Origin: a phage
Length of the DNA: 64,000 nucleotides
Strand: one strand, 5' to 3'
Sequence record: PZ496581.1
Shown here: positions 7,206 through 40,988 of the stretch, piece after piece
Position numbering within the stretch: position 1 is the stretch's first letter
How the letters are laid out: every line of letters starts with the position of its first letter
Program-made: the position numbers and the translations under genes
Notes under the pieces: model-generated
The model's input: the letters and a program-made list of their open reading frames with translations, nothing else
Told to the model about the DNA's origin: nothing
Databases searched by the model: none

Positions 7206-8153
7206 TTATTCTGTAAATAATTCAGTAACGTCTGAAATTACTTCATAACGACAAGTACGCATCTTAGCATCACCATAGTCAACCGGGATGGATACAACAT
7301 CACGTGGATGAACTTTAACTTTCACAACTTTATCTGAGCTTGAACCAAAGTGGCGAATATAAGATTTAGCACAAACGTGGAGACCGCGAGAACAGGTTTG
7401 AGTATCATCGTCGTTAACTCGAGTACGAGGCATTGAAACAACTTTACCTGGGGAGTTATCAAATGTACCACTATAACAGTCTAAATAGTCCTTACGAACT
7501 ACTTTCCACGCATAGAAATGACCATCTTCAGTGATTTCAATATCGTTTGCAACCAAGAAGTCGAATAAACGTTGTACAGCTTTTTCGCTTGGGTTTTCTA
7601 ACAGGTTTTCAAGGAATGGCAGATAGAATTTAAAGTCTTCACCTTTTTCCATGGAATCAATAATACGGTTAACCAGCCCTGAACGAATCTCTATACCTTG
7701 ATAAAATAAACTACCACCTTCAATAGTAACATTACCATCAACAAACTTAGTAATAGCTTTCTTGATGTTAATAAGTTCGACAGCTTTACTAAGGTTTCCT
7801 GCGACCAGATTAGCTTTAATTTCTTCAAAATTTGCATGACTTGATGGAGTCGCATTGTATGCTACGCGTCCTTCAATAATTGAAATAAATTTAGATGACG
7901 CGTTCCATACGATTTCAGGACGATGTCCGCCGATAATAGGTTCATCATTTTCTGGAACTTCTTCGATTACATAAGAGGCATCGTTTGCTTCAGGGACAAC
8001 GCCTTCTGCTTTAAAATTCTTAACAATCTTACGAAGAGTATCTGTTGAAATGTCGAAGTAATCGGCAATTTCTTTACGAGTCCATTTGCCTGATTCAACC
8101 AGGCCGTAAGCTTCTAACTGTTCTTCTTGGGACAAGCATTTAATATTGTACAT
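7206..8153 (-). CDS. rIIB: rIIB protein
   Basis: 315 aa; MYNIKCL... start and C-terminal ...VNDDDTQTCSRGLHVC.KSYIRHFGSS match T4 rIIB as recalled. Confidence 0.9.
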   Translation of the reverse strand: MYNIKCLSQEEQLEAYGLVESGKWTRKEIADYFDISTDTLRKIVKNFKAEGVVPEANDASYVIEEVPENDEPIIGGHRPEIVWNASSKFISIIEGRVAYNATPSSHANFEEIKANLVAGNLSKAVELINIKKAITKFVDGNVTIEGGSLFYQGIEIRSGLVNRIIDSMEKGEDFKFYLPFLENLLENPSEKAVQRLFDFLVANDIEITEDGHFYAWKVVRKDYLDCYSGTFDNSPGKVVSMPRTRVNDDDTQTCSRGLHVCAKSYIRHFGSSSDKVVKVKVHPRDVVSIPVDYGDAKMRTCRYEVISDVTELFTE

Positions 8154-8162
8154 AATGTTTCC

Positions 8163-10378
8163 TTATTTGGCCGCTTCCACGGCCTTCATGAATTTAACGA
8201 TTTGAGCGACCTGTTCTTTGGAAAGAGTACCACGTCGTCCCATGTATTCTGACACAATATGATAATTGGTTTCGAATTCAATAACCATTTTATCATCATT
8301 ATCGTAAGCATTATCTTTAAGCTTATCGAAAATTTTAGCGCACAATTCTAACTTCCTGTTCAGGTCTCTGTTATCAGCACCTGCGAATCGATTCCATCCC
8401 CAGCGATTATTTACTGTTGAGAGTTTTGCAAAGTCTTTACTGATTTCTTTGTTCTTAGAGCTAAAATACTTACTAAGGAAGTTAAGCTCTTCGTTACGAG
8501 TAATATGATTCAAATAAGGCTGTGCTCTACGACTTGGTGATACATACTCATCATAATCCACTTTATCAATTAGCGTAATATAGTCGTTAATTGATTTTTC
8601 GAACAAGCATTCTACTTCACCAAGTTTACGAACTTTCTTAGCAATCTGTGGACGGACTACAGTGAACTCTTTAATACCTGACAAATCAGCAATACGGGTC
8701 AAGAAATTGGAGTCATAGTTCAACCAACCTTTATCTGCGTCAAGACATTCAGCATTAGAACGATTACGAACTATAGCATAACCTTGGATTTCATCAGCTT
8801 CACTCGCTGGAATAAAGAGATCTTCCGATACCCAAACATCGTTTTCGTTCTTGAAGAAACGATGGGCACTCGGTGATTTAGGGCGAGGCCCATTAGAACG
8901 AGTCTTGACTTCAATCCATGGCTTAACGATTTGTAAAAGCTCTGAAGTCTTGTACATGTTAATGTTGTCGCCATCAAAGATAACTTTAAGGCGTTCCAGA
9001 AGTTTCATTGCATCTTCGTCTGTAGGGTCAACGAATAGTACGCTTTTACCAAAACCGCGTGGAACTTTACCGGTTAATTTAACCTCGTCTTTAGACATTT
9101 CAATTGAATTAAGAGCTCGCATTAATGGAACGCGTCCCTTAACGTCGTCAATAACAATTTCAACGTTTTTAATGTTAATGCCAATCAGGCTATTAATTGA
9201 AATGGTTGTTGATGAGCTACCACTTTCACGAATACGACGAAGACGAGGGGATTCAACGATATCGTATACGACGCCAAGATTACACCACTCAGGCCCCATT
9301 TTAAAACGTTTGTACAACTCGGAATAAGTTAGTTGTTCTTTAGAGTATTTCAGTGATTCAATATTAGACCCGGCCTTTTCCATGTATTTACGAGCGGTAT
9401 AGCCAAGAGAATCAATTTCACGGAACACATGACGTGGGTATTTACAATCAATCCATTTCTTAGAATCTTCAGCGAACAATTTAGCATCGATTTCTGCAAC
9501 ACGTTTATGGATATTTGCTACTGTACGTTTATCAAATGACAATGCTTCACGAGACGGGGCTACATCTAGTTCACCCATAGGGAATTTAATATAAGCTGTA
9601 GTGCATCGCGTCATCATCCATGTTTGTTCTTTAATAACACTTCCGATTGGATATACAATACCACCATAAACAGCCATGATATTACCACGTTCACCCCATG
9701 GAGCTTCCTTGGCCAAATATACATCGTCAAATTCAGGAAAGTATTTAATATCTTTAACACCACGAACTTCTGCAATATCACCTAGAGGACGCATAACATA
9801 TGCAATTTCAGATGCGAACTTTTCAAAATCTTCTGGGTTAACCGGTACAACTACTTCTACACCCGTACGGTCATCGGGGCCCATCTTATCTACAAAGGTT
9901 GGCTTAATTTGTGGACCTGTGTCATCTTGGTAGATTACGTAACCACGAACTTCACCGTTGTGATAAGACGTAAGGTTAAACGTATCGGTATATGCTAGTG
10001 GAGCTTTAGAGCCGAGTCCGAATCCACCAATGAAATCGTTACTCGATGTTTTAGTTGAAGCAAAATATGAGTTATAGATTCCTGGCTCTTCGTCATTACC
10101 TCGAATGGTGAAATCACTCATACCAGGACCAAAGTCTCGAACTACAAAACGCGGGTCTAAACGACCTGGAGCCTGAACAATAAACTTATCAGTGCAACCA
10201 TTAAGAATTTGTCCATCGATACAGTTTGTGATTAATTCACGTACACAAGCCAATTCTTTGTTTGTATAAAGGTCTCATTAGACAAAATCTTATAAACTTT
10301 GCTATTGCCTTGAATAGTGAATGCTGTGCTCTTACCGCCTGAACCAATAATTGTTTCTTTAGCCGTTTCAATAATCAT
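8163..10378 (-). CDS. rIIA: rIIA protein, reading frame broken near 10271-10276
   Basis: Main 696-codon frame has GHKL N-box (VRELITNCID) but no ATG; rIIA-like N-terminus MIIETAKETIIGSGGKS... starts at 10378 in another frame. Confidence 0.65.
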
Positions 10379-10683: not shown

Positions 10684-11784
10684 TTACGCTGTGAAGATTT
10701 TATCCCACATCGCAACAACTGCATCTCGGTTATACTTCTTCCATACTGCTTCAGCACGTTTAACTCGAGCTTCGTATGTGTCAGTGAATTCTAATACAGC
10801 TTTTGTGTAAAGCGCAACTACTTCTTTCTTAGGAGTAGAGGAATCAATTTCTACACGCACAGTATCTGGGTCATATTCGAATGTCGCGTGCGGATAATCC
10901 TTAAAAACTAACTGGATTACAGGGACACCTTTAGAGATGGCTTCAATAGAACTATTCTCTACCGTACCTGTGTCAGGACATGTATTAATAAGTGCTTTAG
11001 CTGTTTTAAGACGTTCCATGATTTCACTGTGTGGAGCATCAATAATAACAGGATATTTAGCTGGTGGTGCCCATTTGCTTGGACAATAACCAATACCATT
11101 TTCGCCTAGTGCTTTAATTGCTTCAAGAGCAACATCAGTGCGACGCATTTTAGTGTCATAACGTTGAGCACTAATAATCAAATCAGTTGCTGGGAGAACT
11201 TCTGGCTTTTCAGTCAAACAAATAACCGGATAATCTTCGGCTTCAAACAACGGATTTGCTCGCCAATAATCATAATCAATTTTGTCAGTCAGACCTGAAG
11301 TCATATAACAATATTTGCGTTCAAATTCACGGAAGGCTTTAGTAGGAGCATAACTCTTACCACCATTCTTATGAATTTGAATAGTCTGGTCCCAAATTTG
11401 AACAATGCCACGAGATACCGGTTCAAATGGTGTTGCCATAAAATTCTTATGAACTTTAGAGAGACCTGCGTCTTTAATTGCCTGAACGGTTAGTTTAGTC
11501 GGTTCCATAGTAACAACAAAATCGTATTCATGGATGCCGGCTAGTTCAACAATCTTACGAGCCATAGTATAACTCATACCTAGACTGAATTTAGTCAGAT
11601 GACCAACAGGATGGTGTGTAACTTTCCAGTCACCAAACGTGTCATTATCAAAGCCGATATAATCAATATCAGCACCGATGGACACAAGATATTTCAACAC
11701 ATTTAAATGTACTGCTTCAAGACCACCTTGTACACGGTCAGGATTAAATGGGACTGCACGAGATGGGATAAACATAACTTTCAT
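10684..11784 (-). CDS. GT-B-type glycosyltransferase candidate
   Basis: 366 aa; N-terminus MKVMFIPSRAVPFNPDRVQGGLEAVHLNVLKYL and C-terminal TCPDTGTVENSSIEAISKGVPVI resemble GT-B (GT4-like) signatures. Confidence 0.5.
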   Translation of the reverse strand: MKVMFIPSRAVPFNPDRVQGGLEAVHLNVLKYLVSIGADIDYIGFDNDTFGDWKVTHHPVGHLTKFSLGMSYTMARKIVELAGIHEYDFVVTMEPTKLTVQAIKDAGLSKVHKNFMATPFEPVSRGIVQIWDQTIQIHKNGGKSYAPTKAFREFERKYCYMTSGLTDKIDYDYWRANPLFEAEDYPVICLTEKPEVLPATDLIISAQRYDTKMRRTDVALEAIKALGENGIGYCPSKWAPPAKYPVIIDAPHSEIMERLKTAKALINTCPDTGTVENSSIEAISKGVPVIQLVFKDYPHATFEYDPDTVRVEIDSSTPKKEVVALYTKAVLEFTDTYEARVKRAEAVWKKYNRDAVVAMWDKIFTA

Positions 11785-11804
11785 AATTAAGCCTTATTAA
11801 AATT

Positions 11805-11827
11805 AAAATGAAGCTCCCGAAGGAGCT
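11805..11827 (-). terminator. possible terminator after gene 39
   Basis: AGCUCC-UUCG-GGAGCU hairpin overlapping stop, then U-rich tract. Confidence 0.45.
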
Positions 11828-13644
11828 TAGGACATCCATTCTTTACGAAGTTCTGAATCATCACCCATCAACATTTCAAAGAGTTCTTTCCAATTTTCAG
11901 GAAGTTTAACTACGTCGTACACAGGGTTCTGAATCATTTCACGATATTCTGACTTTTCAAGGGAGCCTAATCCCTTGATGTATCGAATACTATGCTTAGG
12001 CAGTGTATCTTTAACTTCTTCATACTCAGCTACAGTATAAAACCATTTTTGAGTTTTGCCAATTTGTGCAATAATTACAGGCGTTTTAACAAAGCGAATA
12101 CGTCCTTGTTCAAACAATTCAGGCCAATTACTAAAGAAAGCAAGCAAAGCCGGATAGATACTTCCAAGACCGTCGTGATCTGCATCAGTCATAATTGCAA
12201 TATTACGATAGTTCGTATTCTCTGCCTTTTCACCAAGAATAAGACCTGTGATAGCACAGATATCAAAGAGCTCTTTGTTCTTCATCATATCAGCATATGA
12301 CATACCCCAGCTATTCATCACCTTACCACGTAATGGGAATCCGCCGTGTAGTTCACGGTCACGAACATCAATGAGATAACCAATTGCCGAATCACCTTCT
12401 GTTAAAAACAATGTCGTATCTGCATCTTTACCACATTGGTTAGCTTTAATATGCTTATGAACCTTAGCTTTAGTCGCCTTTTTAGCTGCTTTAGTTTCTG
12501 CAGCCTTTTCTGCTGCCAATTTACGAGCTAATGCTGCTTCAACAATAGGCATAATCAAGGCTTCGTTTTTAAGAAGTGCCTGAGCAATTTTCTTAGCATC
12601 TAATTGGATATGATTACGAATATCACCATACGTTGACGTTAAACGTTCTTTAGTCTGAGAATCAAAACGCATGTTGCTCATGTCTCTAATAAACATCAAC
12701 ATTGTGAGGCATTCTTTAACACGAGCTTTAGTGACTTCAATACCCTTATATTTCTTTTTAATACCCGGCAAAAGATGTTCACAGATATCATCCATTACAC
12801 ATTCAACATGATGGCCACCATTTTTAGTATGGATGTTATTCACATAAGTTAAATGACGGAAGCCATCTGGTGATGTTGTGAATGCTATAGAGACTTTATC
12901 ATTTTCTTGAATGATGTTATCTTCACCGAATTGTTTAGCAAATCGTTTAAAATTACCATCAACCTTTTTACCATTAAATGTGAACTTGATATCAGGATAA
13001 ACGACTGCCAATGTTTGAAGTCGGTCTAAAGTAATATCTAAATAAATTTGAGATAAATTATGCTCTTCAAATGAAGTGAAATCAGGAGTGAAGATTACTT
13101 TAGTGCCTTTACCTTTAGATTTCTTAGAAGACCATGATTTGTTTTCCATTCCGTTTGAACAGTTAACAGTGATTTCATTTTCGCCATCTGATGTGATGCC
13201 TGTAAACAACGTAGAGAAGATATTAGTTAAACTACTCCCGACGCCGTTCATACCACCAGTCTTGCGTTCAGAGTCATCACCAAAGTTACCACCAGCCTTT
13301 GGAATAGTCCAGGCTGCTACAGGCCCAGGAATTTGTTCACCCGTTTGGTCGGTAACTAAACCTTGAGGAATACCACGTCCGTTATCTTCCACCGAAACTT
13401 GATTATTTTTAATTTGCACATCAATTTTATTTGCAAACTTAAATGATGTACGAATAGCTTCATCAACCGAGTTGTCAATAATCTCATCGATTAATTTAAC
13501 CAGGCCAGGAACATATTCAACTTGTTGATATTTACCAAACAAAAAACGCTCATGTGCTTCTTTAGCCGAAGAACCAATATACATACCACTACGTTTCTTA
13601 ATATGTTCTACATCTGACAATACCTTAATTTCATTTTTAATCAT
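11827..13644 (-). CDS. 39: DNA topoisomerase II large subunit (GyrB-like), 39 and 60 equivalents fused
   Basis: 605 aa continuous ORF; GHKL ATPase N-terminus, TOPRIM region; no split or bypass element. Confidence 0.9.
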   Translation of the reverse strand: MIKNEIKVLSDVEHIKKRSGMYIGSSAKEAHERFLFGKYQQVEYVPGLVKLIDEIIDNSVDEAIRTSFKFANKIDVQIKNNQVSVEDNGRGIPQGLVTDQTGEQIPGPVAAWTIPKAGGNFGDDSERKTGGMNGVGSSLTNIFSTLFTGITSDGENEITVNCSNGMENKSWSSKKSKGKGTKVIFTPDFTSFEEHNLSQIYLDITLDRLQTLAVVYPDIKFTFNGKKVDGNFKRFAKQFGEDNIIQENDKVSIAFTTSPDGFRHLTYVNNIHTKNGGHHVECVMDDICEHLLPGIKKKYKGIEVTKARVKECLTMLMFIRDMSNMRFDSQTKERLTSTYGDIRNHIQLDAKKIAQALLKNEALIMPIVEAALARKLAAEKAAETKAAKKATKAKVHKHIKANQCGKDADTTLFLTEGDSAIGYLIDVRDRELHGGFPLRGKVMNSWGMSYADMMKNKELFDICAITGLILGEKAENTNYRNIAIMTDADHDGLGSIYPALLAFFSNWPELFEQGRIRFVKTPVIIAQIGKTQKWFYTVAEYEEVKDTLPKHSIRYIKGLGSLEKSEYREMIQNPVYDVVKLPENWKELFEMLMGDDSELRKEWMS

Positions 13645-30077: not shown

Positions 30078-30440
30078 TTAAAAGAATTTAAATTTTTTCT
30101 TGGTTCGTTCATTAAAAGCTTGTTGTACTTGCATTGTAACACATTTTTCAACATGTGGTGCAAGTTCTGCTTTTCTGTCCTGGTCAAGAACTGCAAAGTC
30201 CATTACGATTTTACCATCAACCCAGTCTAGTTTTGTAATATAGACTATATGATGGGAACCGTCTTCAAGTGTAATCAGAATCTCTTGAATGACATTTTCC
30301 ATTGCTGAACGGATAATTTTAAGAGATTCATTAAACACTCGTTCTTTGCGAATGTCCTCCCCTTCCGAAGAAGGGGATTCATCAACGATTTCTAGATTTA
30401 AATCATCGAGATTATTCATCGAAATCTTCCATTTCGTCAA
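30078..30440 (-). CDS. hypothetical protein (gene 40 position)
   Basis: 120 aa ORF between 41 and uvsX. Confidence 0.45.
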   Translation of the reverse strand: MTKWKISMNNLDDLNLEIVDESPSSEGEDIRKERVFNESLKIIRSAMENVIQEILITLEDGSHHIVYITKLDWVDGKIVMDFAVLDQDRKAELAPHVEKCVTMQVQQAFNERTKKKFKFF

Positions 30441-31584
30441 GGTCGTTTTCTATATCTGCTGCAGATGGAGCATCAGAAGTTTTAACCGGAACTTTAGTTG
30501 TTGCTTTGCAATTAATAAGGTCGTTAACAGCGTCATCAACTTCTTTAATAGAAGAGATAGCACCTAGTTTATATTTAGTTTCAATTGCATCTCGGAAAGG
30601 TTTGTGTTTAAACAAAGGTCCCCAGAATTCTACACAATCAGTAGCTTTAGCACGCCATGATTTTTCTTCACGAATCATTTCACCTGTTTCTTCGTCAAGG
30701 AATTCGCGAGCATACCAACCGGCTTTAGGCTTAACCACAAAACCGATTTCAGTTGCCATTTCTAACAAGCCACTGAATGGGTCAATACCGCCATCAAAAT
30801 TAACCGTGATCGGGAAAGTAGATTTCTCTTTAACTGTGCGAGATTTTTCTGCTTTCAACGTGAAGTCATAACCGGTCAATTCTGTACCTTCTTTAACCTG
30901 ACGTTTAGAGATAAAAAACACTGTGTTGGCAGAATAAAGAATACCTGTACCACCGCCCATAATCTCTTTAGGATACAATCCGCCAATTTCCATTGCGGTA
31001 TGGTTAATTGCAACACACGGAATATCTTTAATAGTCAGATACGGGGTCACAATACGGAAAAGAGATTTAAGTGCCTTAGCACGAGACATATCACCTACAA
31101 CTTTCTCGTTCAATGCATCTTCAGTTTCTTTCTTAGATGCAGTATTACCGATTGAATCGATAAAGATAATAACTTTATCACCCCGTTCAATCGCGTCAAG
31201 CTGATTAGTCATATCAACTTTAAGTTGTTCGACGGATTGAATCGGAGTATGAACTACACGGTCTAAATCAACACCCATTGAACGAAAATAAGATTCTGAA
31301 GCACCGAATTCTGAGTCATAAAACAAACAGATTGCATCTTTATATTTCTTCATATACGCTGCGACCATAGTTAGTCCAAACAATGTTTTAAAATGTTTAG
31401 AAGGTGCAGCAAAAATAGTCAAGCCTGATTGCAATCCTGCATTCAGAGCACCACCTAGTGCAATATTCAACATCGGAATACGAGTAGGGACTTCATCACG
31501 ATTATTAAACAGCTTAGACTTAGTCAAGTCTGCAGTCATTTTAGAAGTAGAAGCTTTAATCAGACGAGATTTTAAATCAGACAT
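30412..31584 (-). CDS. uvsX: UvsX recombinase (RecA-like)
   Basis: 390 aa; RecA fold motifs; T4 UvsX size and position. Confidence 0.9.
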   Translation of the reverse strand: MSDLKSRLIKASTSKMTADLTKSKLFNNRDEVPTRIPMLNIALGGALNAGLQSGLTIFAAPSKHFKTLFGLTMVAAYMKKYKDAICLFYDSEFGASESYFRSMGVDLDRVVHTPIQSVEQLKVDMTNQLDAIERGDKVIIFIDSIGNTASKKETEDALNEKVVGDMSRAKALKSLFRIVTPYLTIKDIPCVAINHTAMEIGGLYPKEIMGGGTGILYSANTVFFISKRQVKEGTELTGYDFTLKAEKSRTVKEKSTFPITVNFDGGIDPFSGLLEMATEIGFVVKPKAGWYAREFLDEETGEMIREEKSWRAKATDCVEFWGPLFKHKPFRDAIETKYKLGAISSIKEVDDAVNDLINCKATTKVPVKTSDAPSAADIENDLDEMEDFDE

Positions 31585-31682: not shown

Positions 31683-32231
31683 TTAACGAGCCCATTTGAT
31701 GATTTCTGTAATCAAATCATTACGTTCGCTTGCATTAAATCCTATAACTTTGTTAGCACCATCATGATTAAGTAATTGATACGTTTGGATTTTGTTATGA
31801 ATTGCAAACTCTTCAAAATGTGAAATGACTGTATTAAAACCGAATGAAGACAAAGTAATAAGGTCGTCTTCAAAACTTTCAGTCATTTCGTTACGTGTTA
31901 AAATAATTGTGAACACATCATGGTTTTGGCAAAGACGAACATAATCCTGTTCATAAACGTCAAGAACCGAGTCCGCATCTTGTCGAATACGTCCATAAAC
32001 CCAGTTACTAATATATCCACGGTCTAATAGATAAATCTTAGTAGGGTCTAAATAATTCAACATCGTTTCGAAACAGCCAACTTCATTTCGAGACTTAACA
32101 TCGAAACGTCCATCAACTGTTCGTTTAGGGAAATCAATCTTTACATATCTTTCACTAATTTCCATTATGTCATTAATGAAAGTTGTTTTACCAGCATTAT
32201 CCGGGCCATCTACTAAAATAATTTTAGCCAT
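31683..32231 (-). CDS. P-loop kinase (thymidylate-kinase-like)
   Basis: 182 aa; Walker A GPDNAGKTT, LLDRGY resembling TMPK DRY motif; at T4 bgt position. Confidence 0.5.
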   Translation of the reverse strand: MAKIILVDGPDNAGKTTFINDIMEISERYVKIDFPKRTVDGRFDVKSRNEVGCFETMLNYLDPTKIYLLDRGYISNWVYGRIRQDADSVLDVYEQDYVRLCQNHDVFTIILTRNEMTESFEDDLITLSSFGFNTVISHFEEFAIHNKIQTYQLLNHDGANKVIGFNASERNDLITEIIKWAR

Positions 32232-32232
32232 T

Positions 32233-33132
32233 TTATTCCTCGATTACGACATCTTCGTATTTAGGTATATTATACGGTGAAGAAATTAAAGCATTAAAGT
32301 AGATGAACTCACCAAGACCTGGATGGAATACTTCTTCAGGATTTTCGAAATATTGAATCTTCGGACGTCCTTTAAGAATTTGATAGTACTCAGTTTTAGT
32401 TGGTTTAAAAATTCGAATCAACGCTTCTTCAGGATACTTATTTCTGTCGAAGCTATTATTTGGATCGGTTATATAAAGCGGTTGACCTAATTGAATTGCA
32501 CATTCAACCACTTGTTCAAAACGATAGCACGGGTCACTAATTCGAAATGGATGAAAAATACCATCTAGATGAATAGGAGCCAAATCACCTACAAGACGCT
32601 GCATGATGGAAGGACGTATAACTTTCTGGGTTATGATAATCTTATTACCATCGGCACCAGCGTTAACCAGCACTTCTTTTTGACGTTCATTCAACACAGT
32701 AGTTTGAAGTGAACGATTAACCGACAACATATCGGTTTTTAAGAATTCGTCAATATAAAAACGTGGTTTATTAGGGTCTGCAGTGATATTGAAATTGAAT
32801 TCCACATCAAAAGCGCCGTCATATCCGGTGATATCTGTGATTAGAAAATCACAATCATAATAAGCAATTAATGAATCAACCACAAATTCATTTTCAGACC
32901 AGAAATATTTACGAGTGTTATACGCGTTATCTTTATACCATAATGGAACAAACTTAAATTCTGGAAAAAGACGTTCGCATTCTTTAATATCAGATGCATT
33001 ACGTGGATATGTAATCACATCACCCGGATTAGCACGGTGCAAATGAAGTTGGAAGTTGCCATCCTTAAGGATAGCATACTGTCCAGTTTCATAAGACCGC
33101 ATACTCAAAATAGGTACGCGGAAAATAGCCAT
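32233..33132 (-). CDS. hypothetical protein
   Basis: 299 aa, no recognised motif; at T4 bgt position. Confidence 0.5.
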   Translation of the reverse strand: MAIFRVPILSMRSYETGQYAILKDGNFQLHLHRANPGDVITYPRNASDIKECERLFPEFKFVPLWYKDNAYNTRKYFWSENEFVVDSLIAYYDCDFLITDITGYDGAFDVEFNFNITADPNKPRFYIDEFLKTDMLSVNRSLQTTVLNERQKEVLVNAGADGNKIIITQKVIRPSIMQRLVGDLAPIHLDGIFHPFRISDPCYRFEQVVECAIQLGQPLYITDPNNSFDRNKYPEEALIRIFKPTKTEYYQILKGRPKIQYFENPEEVFHPGLGEFIYFNALISSPYNIPKYEDVVIEE

Positions 33133-33848
33133 TAGTCAAGGAATCCTTTAACATAATCAAAATCACGTTCAAACACATGGGCACTTACCATGGTATGAGT
33201 ATAATCACCAACTTCTACACCACATTCGTTAGCGATATAATGAAGTAATTTTCCTTGGAGATAAAAATCCAACTGCATAACAACAGCACAGTTCTGAGAA
33301 CGCATATGACAGTGGGTATAAAGCTTACCATCACGAATATAATAAGTCACTGAGTCAGTACATGGATATTCAAGCGTTTCGTCTGAATCAAGCAAAGCCT
33401 GATCAGAACTTTCTAGAATTTGGAACACAACTCTTCGAGAGTTAGGCTTCTCTTTAAGTTCTTTTAGAAGAGCTGGTAATTGGGCCGCAATGCGAGGACC
33501 ATAGAAAGTGTTGAAGTTCGCCGGCAAAACATCTGATTTTGGTTTAGAAATAAATTTAGCGACATTAGGATATGCCTTAAACGCTTCTTCTGCGTTGGTA
33601 CCACCAGAAATCATAAACTTCCAGAAGTCTTCGGCATATTCATAAGAGATGCGGTTAATACGTGGGTCGGTCATTTTGAATGATGATGGAGTGTCAACAA
33701 CTACTGTCATAGACCCAATTTCATTACAACGTCCAATACGAGAATCAGTTACGAATTCCGGGTTTTCTAAAATTTCACGATTGACTGCTTTAAATGCGGT
33801 TTGAAAATCTGCGGCTTTGATATATTTCATTGTGTTATGTTTTCCCAT
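33132..33848 (-). CDS. 42: dCMP hydroxymethylase-like (thymidylate synthase fold)
   Basis: 238 aa; PNSRR...YPCTDSVTYYIRDGKLYTHCHMRSQNCAVV parallels T4 gp42 PDSRRG...CTNTVQYLIRD...NMRSNDVV; divergent. Confidence 0.7.
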   Translation of the reverse strand: MGKHNTMKYIKAADFQTAFKAVNREILENPEFVTDSRIGRCNEIGSMTVVVDTPSSFKMTDPRINRISYEYAEDFWKFMISGGTNAEEAFKAYPNVAKFISKPKSDVLPANFNTFYGPRIAAQLPALLKELKEKPNSRRVVFQILESSDQALLDSDETLEYPCTDSVTYYIRDGKLYTHCHMRSQNCAVVMQLDFYLQGKLLHYIANECGVEVGDYTHTMVSAHVFERDFDYVKGFLD

Positions 33849-33890: not shown

Positions 33891-34130
33891 TTATTTGAAT
33901 TTCTTGACAATGTTGATATAACGTAAAGCTTCAGCATCGATACTTCCAAGAACACTATGAAGAAATGCATCAGCGTAGTATTCCAATTGAACAGGTTCTT
34001 TAATCACTTTAGCCGCTTTAGTTTCAAACAGGCCCATCAGGGCCTGTTTAAGAATTTGTTCATTAGTGTTCAGTTTCATAGTCAAAATCTCTTCATTAAG
34101 TTGGTGGTTAAAAGTTTTTCTAGAAATCAT
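33891..34130 (-). CDS. hypothetical protein
   Basis: 79 aa ORF. Confidence 0.4.
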   Translation of the reverse strand: MISRKTFNHQLNEEILTMKLNTNEQILKQALMGLFETKAAKVIKEPVQLEYYADAFLHSVLGSIDAEALRYINIVKKFK

Positions 34131-35287
34131 TCCGGGTACCTCAAAGCGTCATCAGAGTTAGTTATATCAATAATAGATATAGAGTTTTCTGCTAACCCGT
34201 TTTTAGATAATTGACGTTTATAATATCTTTCACAATATGTACACGTCGTCCCGCAGATTTCATTAGCACAATCGAAATCTGGATGTCTGAACCACCTTTT
34301 TTCTAAAAAGCCATCTAACAAAGAGGTTTCAATATTTACTGTATGTGAAAACTCAGTTTCGTTTTCAAGAGTGAAAATAGTCTCTAAAGGCTTCCACAGT
34401 TCTAACAAATTACCTTCAAACTTTTCAGAAGCGTATGCTTCAAGAACTTTCAAAATGTAGTCTGTGCTACCTGTACGTCCTGAAACTTTGAATTGAGTGA
34501 TACCAATATCATTATAAAGTTTCAAATCTTGAGGACGAACAAAACGAGTTCTCAACCAGTTAAATGGGTCTGTATCACGAGCTTTAATACAGTGCTGCAT
34601 AGGATATCCGTTTAAGGATTTAGCATCATCAGCTGTAACATCAGTACTATGGAAAATATAGCAAGAGTCACGATAGCTACAATGTGTTGTATACCCTTTA
34701 CCAGCATTAGAACAGAACTCATTTACAAGAACTTCAAATATTATATTGTTCTTATTGCAAAACTCTGCTGCACGCTTCAGGAAAGAAACTGAACGGTTCT
34801 TATGAATTCCACAGCAGACCTTTTTGATATTATATTGGTCATGCAAGTATTTGATTTGAGTTACAGCATCGACATGTAGAATTGTTGAAACTTCAATCTC
34901 AATGTCTTTATTGACTTCACGAACAATTTCCATAACAACAGGGTTAGCGATAGTAATACGCCATACGCCTATTGACCAAAGATACTGAACATAATCCTGA
35001 ATAGCTTTCTTCTTCCACTCAACTAGTTCTCTTTTTGAACCAGGATTTATCGTGTTGAGTGTATAGTTAAAGCAAATACCTAATTCGTTACAACGTTTAA
35101 CGTAATCTTCTAACATCTTTTTGTCAACGTCAGGAAGCCTAAAATCAGGTCTGGCTGCTACAAAAGCCATTTCTCTTGTAGAGCCGTATACTTCATTTAT
35201 CAAGCTATTAGGATAAGTTTTATTGAGCTCTACGATTTTATCAAGAAGAGCTAAATCAAAATTCGTTCCGATTTTAAAAGTATTCAT
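34127..35287 (-). CDS. hypothetical enzyme, weakly peptidase-U32-like
   Basis: 386 aa; EVLVNEFCSNAGKGYTTHCSY loosely resembles U32 signature; Cys cluster CGTTCTYC at C-terminus. Confidence 0.45.
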   Translation of the reverse strand: MNTFKIGTNFDLALLDKIVELNKTYPNSLINEVYGSTREMAFVAARPDFRLPDVDKKMLEDYVKRCNELGICFNYTLNTINPGSKRELVEWKKKAIQDYVQYLWSIGVWRITIANPVVMEIVREVNKDIEIEVSTILHVDAVTQIKYLHDQYNIKKVCCGIHKNRSVSFLKRAAEFCNKNNIIFEVLVNEFCSNAGKGYTTHCSYRDSCYIFHSTDVTADDAKSLNGYPMQHCIKARDTDPFNWLRTRFVRPQDLKLYNDIGITQFKVSGRTGSTDYILKVLEAYASEKFEGNLLELWKPLETIFTLENETEFSHTVNIETSLLDGFLEKRWFRHPDFDCANEICGTTCTYCERYYKRQLSKNGLAENSISIIDITNSDDALRYPE

Positions 35288-35347
35288 TTTTTTTGCATCT
35301 CGCGTTAATTGATGTGATGGTTTTTTTTGCAGGTCTTACTTAAATTA

Positions 35348-35749
35348 TTATAGATTCGGTTTATATGATTTAAATGTTTCGAATTCGCCTTTATTCATAA
35401 GAGCTTTGAATTCGTCAGGACGCATAGCTTTGTCGTCGATAATCCAATCATATACTGGTTTATGTGTTAGCAAATTATGGTACTTCAAACCAATGTTTTC
35501 CAAGTTCTGAATCAGACTTGGGAGAATGTCAATTGCTATACGACCAGGACCTACTGACTTCATACCACGAGCAGTGTAAAGCGTTATGGTATGCCCTGCA
35601 TCATACAGGGCATTAATGGCAGACACCATTTCGACGTCTGGTTTGAAGTTCACGTAATCACGATTGTTATTCCATTCCGTGATGCAATCATCGACATCAA
35701 AACAAAGATTAAGCATGTTTTCTACACGGTGCATTAGATTCGTTCCCAT
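35348..35749 (-). CDS. HAD-superfamily phosphatase
   Basis: 133 aa; motif I FDVDDCIT, motif IV WIIDD. Confidence 0.55.
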   Translation of the reverse strand: MGTNLMHRVENMLNLCFDVDDCITEWNNNRDYVNFKPDVEMVSAINALYDAGHTITLYTARGMKSVGPGRIAIDILPSLIQNLENIGLKYHNLLTHKPVYDWIIDDKAMRPDEFKALMNKGEFETFKSYKPNL

Positions 35750-37419
35750 TGATGAGTGATATCGCCACCGATTGGACGATAGGAAACACCAGTTTCTTTA
35801 TCAGTTAGTACCCATTTACCAGGATTTTTTGTAATCAGAGTAGCCGTTACAGGTTCTGCTACGTCATAACTAATAGAGCCGTCCTGAAGTACACGGCCCA
35901 TGTTACGTAATTGCTTAGTCAGAAGTTCCATACCTTTATAATATGCGGCTACCGCTTTAAGTGGATTATTCTTGAAATAACCACCTAATGCAATCCAGAT
36001 AATTGCCACTGCCAAATGATGATACTCGTTAAACGAACTCATCTTTCCATATTTGTAAACTAATGGATTGATGTTAATAGTCACATTACAAGTTGTTTCA
36101 TCAATAGTAAACTGTCCCCAGGTCGGATTAGCATTGAATTCATCATAACCTGAAACAGCATAAAGCACTTTAGCTTCATCATACAATTTTGGCCCGTAAA
36201 TCTTGGTTTCGCCAAAATATCCACGAGGGTCGATAAACTTGACTTCGCCGTTATCAGTAATCATAGTATTACTGAAGTTCGGGTCACCATGAATAACAGA
36301 GTACTGTCCCTGAGAACGGTTATGATAACGAATAAGATGTTCTAAAGCTTGTTTCAACATTGGCTTCAGACGTCCAATCTTAGTGTAGTTCACATGTGTG
36401 ATTTTACCAAATGAATCAATCAATGGTTGAATGCTTTCACAACGATCAATAACTTTCGTATAGAATTCTTTAGTGAAATCACGACGAACAGTTTCAGGAC
36501 TTACAAAATAAGTGTCTGTGCTGAATTTCAGTGCATCTAAAATTGCATCAACAATTTGTGGACGAGCAAGACTTGATTTGGATTTAATATATTCAAATGC
36601 TGGCTTACCTTTAATGCGTTCCATTTCAAAGTTATTTTCATTAACAGAAACTAACTGAGGAACTGAATCTGATTTCACTTTAAGATACCACGAAATCTCA
36701 TCTTTCTGAAGAGCTCGTCCCTGTTCGGTTAATGCGAATTTAGTTACAGTTTCTTCACCAATTTCAACTGCATTAAAACTACGATTAAGTTCACGAACTT
36801 CATGAGCTTTTTCAAGTTTAGGCATATCACCTAAATCAATTAGATTCATAAGCTCTGATTTATTGAATGCGCTGGCGTAAAGGAATTCTACGAAATCACG
36901 TCCTTTGCAGTATTCATGAATTTCTTCATCAGTAGAACCCATATAGAATTCCCAGTCTTTGAACTGATAAATTCCTACAACATTACCACCTGTTGAACCT
37001 ACGTTAGTGATATTTTCACCGTCGAAATTATATCGACATTCGTCACCCTTAACATAGATTGCGTTAACATTCCAAGACCATGAACCAAAATCAGGAATAA
37101 TATCACACCAGTTAACAATTACATTATGGCCGTCTAAATCTTTGTGTAATTTAGCAAGAGCATAAGCAGAACCATACGCTTCATCAACTGTACGAATAGT
37201 CACATTGAACCCTTCTTGCTCACAATAAGCTCGAACAGTTTCAGCAAATTTTGAATGAACTACTACAATAATTTCATCTGCGCCAAGGTCAGAATAAATT
37301 GTATACAAATTGCTCAGAATAGTGTCTTGTTTATAATTCACAAGAACTTTTGGAATATGATGCGTTATTGGATACAAACGAGTTGCCAGTCCAGCACCAA
37401 GAATAACAGCTTTTTTCAT
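35734..37419 (-). CDS. bifunctional sugar-phosphate nucleotidyltransferase / APH-like kinase
   Basis: 561 aa; N-terminal AVILGAGLATRL...PKVLV; C-terminal HGDPNFSN...IDPRG. Confidence 0.65.
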   Translation of the reverse strand: MKKAVILGAGLATRLYPITHHIPKVLVNYKQDTILSNLYTIYSDLGADEIIVVVHSKFAETVRAYCEQEGFNVTIRTVDEAYGSAYALAKLHKDLDGHNVIVNWCDIIPDFGSWSWNVNAIYVKGDECRYNFDGENITNVGSTGGNVVGIYQFKDWEFYMGSTDEEIHEYCKGRDFVEFLYASAFNKSELMNLIDLGDMPKLEKAHEVRELNRSFNAVEIGEETVTKFALTEQGRALQKDEISWYLKVKSDSVPQLVSVNENNFEMERIKGKPAFEYIKSKSSLARPQIVDAILDALKFSTDTYFVSPETVRRDFTKEFYTKVIDRCESIQPLIDSFGKITHVNYTKIGRLKPMLKQALEHLIRYHNRSQGQYSVIHGDPNFSNTMITDNGEVKFIDPRGYFGETKIYGPKLYDEAKVLYAVSGYDEFNANPTWGQFTIDETTCNVTININPLVYKYGKMSSFNEYHHLAVAIIWIALGGYFKNNPLKAVAAYYKGMELLTKQLRNMGRVLQDGSISYDVAEPVTATLITKNPGKWVLTDKETGVSYRPIGGDITHQWERI

Positions 37420-37600
37420 GTTGAAGTCCTCATTGGTAAGTAGGAGTATTGTACACTATTCTAGTTAAAGCATTCATACTTTGCTTGTAGTCCAATCATA
37501 ATCCATCCAATTACAAGTGTTGGAATCATTACCGGAGCCGTTAAGCTCCAGTAGATAGTCATGACAAGCATCAATAGTAAAAGTCCTATTGTTATTGCTT

Positions 37601-38236
37601 TCATTGTTCGCCTCGTAACATGGCACCTAGTGCACCGCCTGGATGGAACTTAAGGAAATCATTAGAGGTAAATCCACGTTCAGACGAAAGGTTGATAGCA
37701 AACGTATCGATAAGTGCTAACAACAATGTAGTGGACATCGTCGGAGCTAAAGAGTTCTCGTCAACTTCTACCGCGATACCGGTGCAGAACGTATAATCAA
37801 AAAGAGCTTCGTATTCTTGTGGAATGTCAGGGTTACAATGTAACAGAATCTGTTTAACCTGAGGACGAATCATACGAAGATGTTTAGCAACACCTATCAT
37901 TTCTTCAGTCTTACCAGAACGACTGATGTGAACTAATACATCATTAGGTGCAATAAATCCTGCGTCACCATGAGAATAATGCCCGGTGTTCAAATACATG
38001 CTAGGAATACCTAGTGAAGCAAAAGTCTCGGAAGCTTTAGTTGCGATATTAGCATTCTTACCAACACCTGTAATAATTACCCGGCTTTCATAATTACTAA
38101 GTCCAGGGCGTCGAAGAGTTTCTAGAATAGCATTATAACGAGCAGGGTTTTGACTAATTACTTTAGCCATAGTGGCAAGAGATGAAGCTTGTTTTACGAT
38201 TGCGTCAATAGCGATAGTAATAGGAGTAGTTTTCAT
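37601..38236 (-). CDS. SIS-domain sugar-phosphate isomerase (arabinose-5-phosphate isomerase-like)
   Basis: 211 aa; VIITGVGKN, HISRSGKTEE, APTMSTT, FHPGGALG align with KdsD/GutQ SIS domain as recalled; no CBS domains. Confidence 0.75.
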   Translation of the reverse strand: MKTTPITIAIDAIVKQASSLATMAKVISQNPARYNAILETLRRPGLSNYESRVIITGVGKNANIATKASETFASLGIPSMYLNTGHYSHGDAGFIAPNDVLVHISRSGKTEEMIGVAKHLRMIRPQVKQILLHCNPDIPQEYEALFDYTFCTGIAVEVDENSLAPTMSTTLLLALIDTFAINLSSERGFTSNDFLKFHPGGALGAMLRGEQ

Positions 38237-38276: not shown

Positions 38277-40988
38277 TCAAAAATCAAACATATCGAACAG
38301 AGATGCTTTCTTCTCGTAATCGAGTTTAGCTGCTGATGTGAATCCTTCAAGTGGTTTAATAAATGTCTTCTCAAGGAGAACAGTGTAGTCCATCCAATGA
38401 AGTACATCGTCTTTAATTAAATCTGTGATTTCAGTACCAGAAGGCCATGCGATACATTTATCACCGAATGGGTTTCCTTCACGTAAAGGCAGAACATATA
38501 CTTTTTCACCTTCTACAACTTGCGGTGCATCGATATTACCTTTGATAGCCCGGTTATACGTCAGAATTCCACGAATATGGAACGGGCATTTGGGACCAGG
38601 GAATCCACCGACGTCATATTTAGCAATGTTATTCGCAGAAGATACCGACGCGATGCTAATATAATTCAACTGACGGAATTCTTTTTCAAACTCTTTAAAA
38701 TATTCTTGTAATGATTCTTCACCTTCCTGAAGCATACGACGAATACATTCCTTAAGAGCTTTCTGTACTGCTTTAGGAGTCGAAGATTTCTGTGTTTCGA
38801 GACCCATGATTTTAAGCTTAGGTTCAGCGTATCTGGTTCCTTCCATATCCCATACATTCAAGGCATAACGTTTCTTACCTGTCCAAAATCCGCCAATACC
38901 TTTAGAACCAAGCGGAGGCCCAGCGATAGCTTCTCGGTCCATGAACATTAAGTGTTGTTTATTGTTCATGTATTCACACATTTCACGGAAACCTCTATCA
39001 ATAGCTGGTTCCATACGTTCACGTGCAAACTTATCTAAGAAGTCTACCCAATGGTTGGTATCACGGAATTTAGATTCACCAACCTTATCGATAATTTTAT
39101 CGGCAGATACGTAAATAGAGTCTGTATCACCATAAAGAACGAAAGCTTCACCTTCTGTACCACAAACTTCATTCAGATATTCATTAACTTTACGTTCAAT
39201 CCACTGTAAAGCCATTTGTCCGAATGTTGTGATTGCAGTAGCATTACGCAAATCATAATAACGGAACCAAACGTTTCCAAGTGCACCATAAAGTGAGTTG
39301 ATGAGCAATTTACGGTTAATTTGTGCAGTCATACCTGCAACTTCAGTACGTTGAGCTCTAAACAACATTTCATTAAGAGATTTAGCAGACAACTTTTTAA
39401 TCTTTTCTTTAATCTCATCGCTGAAGTCGAAACGATAATCAACATCTAATGGTTCGTCAACAGAAAGATTAGGATTATGCAATGCCTCTTTAATTATTTC
39501 ACCATTACGTTGAGCTGCAAGCATGTAACCTTTATGTTCTTTACGTTGATTAAAGACCTTAGTGATTTCAGTTGGAACTACACCATCACGGTCTTTATAA
39601 TACATCATGCCGTTAGGAGAACAACTGTACACATCTGAAGGACGTTCAGCGATTGCGTTAATATAATCATGCAATGGAGCTACTTTAAACGTTCCTGCTA
39701 TTGTTTCCGGGCTAATATTCACTTGGCGAATAATACTTGGATACAGAGATGTAAGGTCGAAACTCATTACATATTTGTATCGATTTGGAATAGGTTCCTT
39801 AACAAAAGCGCCAGGATAAGGTTGAACCGGGTGAGAACGACCTTGTGGAATCACCTTGTTCTGTTCTTTAAGGCTATTAAAAATAATAGCATCCCATGTT
39901 TTAATTGGGCCAAACACAGATTGAATCTGTATCTTAGCATAATAACCCATGTCCAAACTCAAGTTGATGAACTGACGCTTAGCATCAATTTGCAATACAC
40001 GATACACATCGATAATGTTATAAGAAATATATCGTTGGTGATTGCTTTCACGAAGTTTAGAAATAGGGCCGTCATATTTCAGTTTACCAACGTTCAATTC
40101 AAATTCTGAAATGTAATCCAGAGAATACGATGGTTGATTGGTAAAAGAGAATTTTTTGTAAAGGTCAATGTAATCAAGAACAGAGATACCGAACAATGTA
40201 ATGATTTCACGAGAACCATACATGTTTTCGATAACTTTAACACGAGTTTTACGATGTGGTGATAAACGTTTCGCAGTAGATTCGCCAAAAATATTCTTGA
40301 TTCGGTTATACACATATGGAATATCGAATGACTCAACGTTCCATCCAGTCAAAATGACAGGAGTTTTCTGTTGCCAGAAGTTGAGATATTCCATCAACAA
40401 TTCTTTTTCGTTATCGAACGGTATATAAATGATTTTATCGATAATTTCGGATGGAACTTCATCACCACCTTGTTCTTGAAGCTTAGCCGCAATTTCGATA
40501 GACCATTCTTCTACATTACCATACGGAGAATTCAATAGATCAAATACGTAGAACCTGTCGTCAATTGAGTCATAATGGGTGATAGCATCAATCGGATGTT
40601 TTGCTTGTGATGGCTCAGGGAACCCATCCGGAGATGTTACTTCGATGTCGAAGTTAGCCACACGAATTTTTGTATGGTCGTATTTGATTTCATAGTTATA
40701 AGTGTCAGACAAATACGCCAATTTGAAATCGTCCATACCAAGTGCTTCAAGTCCGATATCTTCCATGCGTTTAATCCATTGGGAGGCATCACGCATATTA
40801 GCGAACAACTTACGAGTACACGGCTTACCGTAGATATCGAAATATTTCGTAGCCTGACTTTCTGGACAATGAGCAAACAGTGATGGTTTATATTCTACTT
40901 CACGAGTACGTTCACGGCCATTAGAATCGATGTAACGTTCAAAAATTGAATCACCAATCTGTTCAACCGTTAAGTAAAATTCTTTCAT
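38277..40988 (-). CDS. 43: DNA polymerase (family B)
   Basis: 903 aa; exo FDIE, polymerase YGDTDS; MKEFYLTVEQ start. Confidence 0.95.
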   Translation of the reverse strand: MKEFYLTVEQIGDSIFERYIDSNGRERTREVEYKPSLFAHCPESQATKYFDIYGKPCTRKLFANMRDASQWIKRMEDIGLEALGMDDFKLAYLSDTYNYEIKYDHTKIRVANFDIEVTSPDGFPEPSQAKHPIDAITHYDSIDDRFYVFDLLNSPYGNVEEWSIEIAAKLQEQGGDEVPSEIIDKIIYIPFDNEKELLMEYLNFWQQKTPVILTGWNVESFDIPYVYNRIKNIFGESTAKRLSPHRKTRVKVIENMYGSREIITLFGISVLDYIDLYKKFSFTNQPSYSLDYISEFELNVGKLKYDGPISKLRESNHQRYISYNIIDVYRVLQIDAKRQFINLSLDMGYYAKIQIQSVFGPIKTWDAIIFNSLKEQNKVIPQGRSHPVQPYPGAFVKEPIPNRYKYVMSFDLTSLYPSIIRQVNISPETIAGTFKVAPLHDYINAIAERPSDVYSCSPNGMMYYKDRDGVVPTEITKVFNQRKEHKGYMLAAQRNGEIIKEALHNPNLSVDEPLDVDYRFDFSDEIKEKIKKLSAKSLNEMLFRAQRTEVAGMTAQINRKLLINSLYGALGNVWFRYYDLRNATAITTFGQMALQWIERKVNEYLNEVCGTEGEAFVLYGDTDSIYVSADKIIDKVGESKFRDTNHWVDFLDKFARERMEPAIDRGFREMCEYMNNKQHLMFMDREAIAGPPLGSKGIGGFWTGKKRYALNVWDMEGTRYAEPKLKIMGLETQKSSTPKAVQKALKECIRRMLQEGEESLQEYFKEFEKEFRQLNYISIASVSSANNIAKYDVGGFPGPKCPFHIRGILTYNRAIKGNIDAPQVVEGEKVYVLPLREGNPFGDKCIAWPSGTEITDLIKDDVLHWMDYTVLLEKTFIKPLEGFTSAAKLDYEKKASLFDMFDF

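Follow-up and report, generated by a model that had tools for sequence, protein, structure and literature searches.

A kinase-glycosyltransferase gene pair coupled to the 5-hydroxy-dCMP synthase gene of a Mosigvirus, and its putative part in arabinosyl-5-hydroxycytosine DNA hypermodification

In bacteriophage T4, the gene for the DNA-acting beta-glucosyltransferase (b-gt) lies together with segA between uvsX and gene 42, the full order being uvsX - segA - b-gt - 42 - imm - imm.1 - 43. What is kept at this place in relatives of T4 whose cytosines are decorated with arabinose? Mahler 2025 and He 2026 are said to cover the arabinosylation system. The modified base was originally assigned as arabinosyl-hydroxymethylcytosine (Thomas et al., 2018), an assignment since corrected in the literature, and the closest described system is that of phage RB69, in which gp48 makes 5-hydroxy-dCMP from dCMP with flavin and O2, gp45 is named 'nucleotide kinase' and gp46:47 'arabinosyltransferase 1', while the products of a neighbouring cassette turn ribulose-5-P into UDP-arabinofuranose (Lee et al., 2026, NAR, PMC13326640). 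Here, we describe the same locus in a 64,000-nucleotide stretch of phage DNA (sequence record PZ496581.1), which was analysed as a whole and is called the window below.

The window comes from a Mosigvirus and shares about 99% identity with RB69 and its relatives; over the 1.7 kb discussed here, more than 150 genomes of this genus match it with 98.8-99.4% identity, NRG-P0074 and RB69 among them, the latter with 98.8% DNA identity. On the minus strand, the genes for gp41 helicase, gp40 and uvsX are followed by two open reading frames for proteins of 182 and 299 aa, and then by a homologue of thymidylate synthase, the five genes of a cassette and DNA polymerase (Table 1). An earlier note on this DNA had given the T4 order correctly, and its positional comparison is right because segA and b-gt of T4 do lie at the corresponding point of the map; the two reading frames also lie on the minus strand exactly where it had put them. 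They are not chance reading frames, since homologues of each are found in about 345 phage genomes and both products fold confidently (pLDDT 95.0 and 87.7 for the two predicted structures). The stop codon of the ThyA-homologue gene overlaps the start codon of the 299-aa gene as TAATG at 33132, and the stop codon of the latter runs into the kinase start as TAAAATG. With such tight junctions, the synthase gene, the 299-aa gene and the kinase gene are a three-gene translationally coupled module. In RB69, gp45, gp46/47 and gp48 are annotated at this locus, and the reference sequence (NC_004928, our locus L002) has the 299-aa gene split into ORF046c/ORF047c (7734-8634) and the 561-aa gene of the cassette split into ORF052c/053c (11231-12917); these splits are sequencing errors according to Lee et al. 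(2026). Both genes are intact in the window and in other Mosigviruses, and the 299-aa protein of phage ChristianSchoenbein is 100% identical to that of the window. Apart from the RB69 split, nothing material differs between the two proteins and their counterparts in RB69, DLP3 and Thanatos.

Table 1. Genes of the modification locus and its surroundings in the window
Feature	Position	Strand	Remarks
366-aa GT4-like second arabinosyltransferase (putative; = RB69 gp3)	10684..11784	-	PDB 9iqz/9ir0 'phage HY126 glycosyltransferase', E 4.8e-250
uvsX	30412-31584	-	neighbour of the two-ORF pair
182-aa thymidylate-kinase-fold P-loop nucleotide kinase	31683..32231	-	= RB69 gp45, DLP3 gp78, Thanatos TH1_064
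299-aa compact GT-B glycosyltransferase, putative first (base-proximal) arabinofuranosyltransferase	32233..33132	-	= RB69 gp46:47, DLP3 gp79, Thanatos TH1_063
238-aa 5-hydroxy-dCMP synthase (thymidylate-synthase homologue)	33132..33848	-	PDB 9iqc/9ir2, E 7.9e-161
79-aa conserved protein, phrog_8601	33891..34130	-	present in only some related loci
386-aa U32-family Fe-S-type protein (= RB69 gp50)	34127..35287	-	Pfam Peptidase_U32, 42.2 bits; weak UbiU match
133-aa HAD-type sugar-phosphate phosphatase (= RB69 gp51, HY126 AfhF analogue)	35348..35749	-	phrog_1238; Lee et al.
561-aa sugar-1-P nucleotidyltransferase (N-terminal) and APH-like kinase (C-terminal)	35734..37419	-	= RB69 gp52:53, HY126 AfhE analogue
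211-aa SIS-domain arabinose-5-phosphate isomerase (= RB69 gp55)	37601..38236	-	phrog_5670, E 2e-116; KpsF/GutQ and KdsD models
DNA polymerase	38277-40988	-	beyond the five-gene cassette

The thymidylate-synthase homologue had been taken for gene 42, dCMP hydroxymethylase, and this name does not hold. The protein is 25% identical to T4 gp42, it has Asn (RSQN) at the position of ThyA D169 where T4 gp42 has Asp (RSND), and its near-identity is to PDB entries 9iqc/9ir2 instead. As D169N is the signature of 5-hydroxy-dCMP synthases (Lee et al., 2026), the 238-aa protein is judged from these three points to be such a synthase, and the base of the RB69-like lineage is therefore arabinosyl-5-hydroxycytosine. 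Thus, to speak of a '42' or 'bgt' locus is correct only as to position, because the modified base is 5-hydroxycytosine and not hydroxymethylcytosine. In related GenBank records the gene is widely labelled 'dCMP hydroxymethylase', 'gene 42' or 'thymidylate synthase'.

The gene content of the cassette beyond the synthase gene (33891..38236) matches the published UDP-arabinofuranose route. Its HAD protein matches TIGR01689, a capsule biosynthesis phosphatase model, at E 1.9e-13, and the two activities of the 561-aa protein are assigned from Pfam NTP_transferase and APH-like matches, from NCBIfam uridylyltransferase matches and from Lee et al. (2026). The gene for the 366-aa transferase stands apart, between ORFs of 696 and 605 aa, and its product is essentially identical to the HY126 glycosyltransferase of known structure. 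Its RB69 counterpart, gp3, we take to be Aat of Mahler et al., the gene deleted in Bas46. In NRG-P0074 a homing endonuclease gene (L001 11186-11947) is inserted between the HAD phosphatase gene and that of the bifunctional enzyme, whereas the window is free of it and the two genes overlap at 35734-35749. Between the gene for the 561-aa enzyme and that for the SIS isomerase, the window has a candidate coding ORF of 50 aa (37474-37626, minus strand), whose position is that of RB69ORF054c, annotated as 'similar to T4 42-imm intercistronic region'. In jumbo-phage-like metagenomic contigs (216-356 kb; L004 605-1123, L006 1-523), the module comes with a Flavodoxin_2-type gene resembling those of NAD(P)H-dependent FMN reductases; it adjoins the SIS isomerase gene, and its product could supply reduced flavin to the 5-hydroxy-dCMP synthase.

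Are the three genes of the module also kept together in other phages? A co-occurrence analysis, which the earlier note had proposed, was carried out in two ways. By tblastn, 349 phage records contain the transferase and 344 the kinase, and the breakdowns by genus are nearly identical (transferase/kinase: Escherichia 177/177, Acinetobacter 57/57, Klebsiella 26/25, Shigella 15/15). By profile scanning of 58 viral-contig loci and 3 metagenomic ones, the kinase is present in 47/47 loci in which a close transferase is followed by 600 nt or more of downstream sequence, to which this count was restricted; it lies directly downstream of the transferase gene in 36 of them and 0.7-2.8 kb upstream in the other 11. 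A ThyA homologue occurs in 43 of 44 loci, adjacent in 37. Genes for arabinose-5-P isomerase, kinase/uridylyltransferase and HAD phosphatase are the usual companions of the two genes, and this co-travel with the ThyA homologue and usually with the sugar genes supports the idea that they act with the cassette. Among the 39 loci that extend 5 kb or more upstream, 8 have no arabinose genes within the locus of about 20 kb and keep the triad of ThyA, transferase and kinase. The same triad is present as gp214-216 in Rhizobium phage RL38J1, a hexosylating phage (Lee et al., 2026). Because the triad persists without the arabinose genes, the conserved core consists of synthase, transferase and kinase, and the kinase tracks the chemistry of the base and not that of the sugar. 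Homologues of the transferase are found in phages whose arabinosyl-5-hydroxycytosine has been established by experiment, namely DLP3 (45.9%), Serratia LC53 (59.7%) and Thanatos (47%), and Maestro belongs to them as well. Had both genes also occurred in phages with ordinary glucosyl-hydroxymethylcytosine, they could hardly be tied to this modification. A profile scan of the T4 uvsX-43 region found neither kinase nor transferase, and the approximately 345 records are those of arabinosylating lineages.

What, then, is the 299-aa protein, in which no motif had been recognised from the sequence? Searches agree with that impression: there is no significant match in Pfam or NCBIfam (no glycosyltransferase model even at E <= 0.1), PDB sequence searches with the protein itself and with a 48-sequence profile of the family find no relative, a PADLOC scan of this and the 182-aa protein gives nothing meaningful, and the protein belongs to phrog_3891, a family of unlabelled function (E 7.9e-156). 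Its predicted structure consists of two Rossmann-like domains that can be superposed on solved GT-B enzymes, and all its strong structural neighbours are GT-B-fold enzymes of NDP-sugars, nearly all of them transferases. Compared with retaining GT-B enzymes of the GT4 type (sucrose-phosphate synthase 6kih, BshA 6n1x, PimA 2gej) and with T4 alpha-GT (1y6f), it shares 7-12% identity and is about 70-100 residues shorter. It does not pass the family HMM of GT4 (Pfam Glycos_transf_1), and the family profile, run against 1.84 billion cluster representatives, finds 230 of them at E <= 1e-3 and does not reach the GT4 family. Thus, its fold is that of a GT-B enzyme, and its sequence places it in a family apart; to judge from this sequence, it is a member of the phage 5-hydroxycytosine 'arabinosyltransferase 1' family, with that activity putative.

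Is it a diverged b-gt? No homology to the T4 enzyme is detected by BLASTP (best E 3.7) or by profile-sequence hhalign (probability 0.3%). The two proteins have in common the slot between uvsX and a thymidylate-synthase-family gene, the GT-B fold and, putatively for the 299-aa protein, the decoration of a cytosine oxygenated at C5, while they differ in length (299 against 351 aa) and, according to the literature, in acceptor and donor, which are 5-hydroxycytosine and UDP-Araf in the lineage of the window and 5-hydroxymethylcytosine and UDP-Glc for b-gt. They also differ in charge, with a median pI of 5.1 in the 299-aa family (none above 7.5; net charge -10 for the member in the window) against 9.05 for T4 b-gt, a difference to be read with care as net charge is a weak proxy for DNA binding and the 366-aa transferase is slightly acidic too.

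For Thanatos TH1_063, which is 47% identical over its full length, the activity reported in vitro is the synthesis of UDP-xylose out of xylose-1-P and UTP, and transfer to DNA, dCMP or dCTP was not seen in the published assay. Hence one could read the 299-aa protein as an NDP-pentose pyrophosphorylase, which makes the activated sugar and transfers nothing to DNA or nucleotides. We give this reading very little chance. The fold is that of GT-B enzymes and not of nucleotidyltransferases, and there is no sugar-1-P nucleotidyltransferase among the strong structural neighbours; the cluster already has a domain for this reaction, in the analogue of HY126 AfhE, for which sugar-1-P nucleotidyltransferase activity has been reported (Lee et al., 2026); and in the 8 loci mentioned above the triad stands without sugar-activation genes. 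The negative result on transfer in Thanatos is uninformative, because the acceptors lacked a 5-hydroxyl. Fold and pathway company thus support a transferase, as had been supposed earlier from the sequence, though not a novel one, since RB69 gp46:47 already carries the name 'arabinosyltransferase 1' (Lee et al., 2026).

The 182-aa protein is easier to place, and both fold and motifs agree with the thymidylate-kinase-like P-loop protein that the earlier note had seen in it. Its predicted structure has the thymidylate-kinase fold with a P-loop, a DR(Y/H)-type motif and a LID arginine, and the P-loop, FPKR and DR motifs are invariant across the family; the closest known systems are TMP kinases (vaccinia A48R 2v54, T. 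thermophilus 5x7j) and the dNMP kinase gp1 of T4 (1dek). At the level of sequence the protein has no match to Pfam PF02223 and scores 16.6 bits with TIGR00041 against a cut-off of 83.25, its distant homologues reach 23-25 bits with the Pfam TMP kinase model against a GA of 27, and the family profile matches vaccinia and other TMP kinases weakly (E 0.005-0.07). The protein had been called a nucleotide or sugar kinase. The fold makes it a nucleotide kinase, so that the first half of this claim stands; a sugar-kinase role is rejected on account of the fold and of the 561-aa protein, whose APH-like C-terminal domain already fills this role in the pathway. Might it still be an ordinary dTMP kinase, supplying dTTP and unrelated to DNA modification? 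In T4-type phages, dTMP is handled by gp1. Moreover, low scores with the TMP kinase models do not fit such a role well, and the subfamily is almost confined to phages that carry the transferase, always at the same locus and sometimes fused to it. In spite of the fold and of the label 'thymidylate kinase' in GenBank and PHROG, we therefore regard a housekeeping dTMP kinase, or a sugar kinase in its stead, as highly improbable, and the genomic linkage argues for a substrate derived from cytosine.

The fusions were found among distant members of the transferase family. In P0261 a TMPK-like domain precedes the transferase domain, and in P0259 and P0265 the order is reversed. The label TMPK-like rests on motifs and on a sub-threshold Pfam match, with E 1.2e-4 for the C-terminus of P0259 against Thymidylate_kin; aligned by hhalign, the fused domains match the kinase of the window weakly (probability 1.5-30%), and what they have in common with it is the P-loop and a '[DT]R-x-[FY]-[IV]-S-[ND]-x-VY' motif. 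Another kind of fusion is seen in P0166, P0176, P0178, P0197 and P0248 (about 470-550 aa), in which an N-terminal HAD-like phosphatase domain with DFDG ... GDD motifs is joined to a GT1-like domain. Since such phosphatase-transferase fusions exist, a fusion marks membership in the pathway and not necessarily consecutive steps.

How would these proteins work together? The following roles are proposed from fold, linkage and published chemistry, and they are the ones that Lee et al. (2026) assign. The 182-aa kinase would make the diphosphate of a mononucleotide derived from 5-hydroxy-dCMP and thereby feed the modified base into the dNTP pool; the 299-aa GT-B enzyme, with UDP-Araf as donor, would attach the base-proximal arabinofuranose, the first one, to the 5-hydroxyl of cytosine; and the 366-aa transferase would add the second arabinose. 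We consider it likely that the three-gene module is the core of arabinosyl-5-hydroxycytosine DNA hypermodification with transferase and kinase acting in these roles. Against it count the UDP-xylose synthesis reported for the Thanatos orthologue, the negative outcome with individual DLP3 transferases described below, and the gp1-type dNMP kinase of RB69, which already converts 5-hydroxy-dCMP to the diphosphate (Lee et al., 2026) and so leaves the need for a second kinase unexplained.

Two kinases would hint at two different substrates. The 299-aa transferase might arabinosylate 5-hydroxy-dCMP before replication, the TMPK-like kinase would then phosphorylate the product, arabinosyl-5-hydroxy-dCMP, which the gp1-type kinase may reject, and the polymerase would incorporate a glycosylated dCTP analogue, with only the second and third sugars going onto DNA. 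The constant company and translational coupling of the two genes would be explained in this way, as would their fusions in both orders and the acidity of the transferase family. Lee et al. (2026) leave undecided whether a mononucleotide or DNA accepts the first sugar, and individual DLP3 glycosyltransferases did not arabinosylate 5-hydroxycytosine-containing DNA (data not shown in that paper). On the other hand, all characterised sugar modifications of T-even phages are post-replicative and the later arabinoses are added on DNA (Lee et al., 2026). Phages without a gp1-type kinase would need the TMPK-like kinase just for 5-hydroxy-dCMP itself; in RL38J1 the TMPK-like kinase is the only one listed (Table 1 of Lee et al., 2026). 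The phosphatase fusions join pathway members that are not consecutive, and the acidity of the family weighs little for the reason given above. We know of no report of a glycosylated dNTP. On balance, glycosylation ahead of replication appears unlikely to us.

Another member of the cassette deserves attention with respect to the origin of the modified base. The 386-aa U32 protein, listed for RB69 gp50 only as 'sugar or heterocycle reductase' (Lee et al., 2026), may be an O2-independent cytosine-5 hydroxylase, as far as one can judge from its relatives and neighbours. The U32 proteins RlhA, TrhP and UbiU/V have been linked to hydroxylations that depend on prephenate and proceed without air, those of RNA included, and in the phage protein 10 Cys are invariant, among them those of C340-x4-C-x3-C-x2-C352. 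In several contigs that are not T4-like (L054, L056, L057, L059, L066, L067 and L068 bear this lead), the order is kinase - transferase - U32, or a kinase-transferase fusion followed by a 174-aa ORF and U32, and no thymidylate-synthase homologue is found within the stretch examined in these loci. The U32 gene is present in the loci of Enterobacterales and Shewanella phages and absent from those of Acinetobacter and Pseudomonas phages. A literature search gave no report that ties a phage U32 protein to 5-hydroxycytosine. The known 5-hydroxy-dCMP synthase requires O2 (Lee et al., 2026); if the U32 protein supplies 5-hydroxycytosine without oxygen, this would matter for phages that replicate in the anoxic gut and for strains used in phage therapy.

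The gene pair between uvsX and the synthase gene is a real finding and not a new one, because papers from 2018 to 2026 had already described the cluster and its modified base and given both genes their putative roles. New here are the kinase-transferase linkage in all 47 loci, the fusions in both orders and the recognition that the transferases form a small, uniformly acidic family. Some common misannotations can be corrected at the same time: 'dCMP hydroxymethylase / gene 42' should read 5-hydroxy-dCMP synthase, 'thymidylate kinase' a nucleotide kinase linked to modification, and 'RNA polymerase binding protein' a glycosyltransferase. The strict linkage and the fusions also point to the step of the first sugar: where is it added, and on what? 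If it were placed on the mononucleotide after all, this would be, to our knowledge, the first case of pre-replicative DNA glycosylation.
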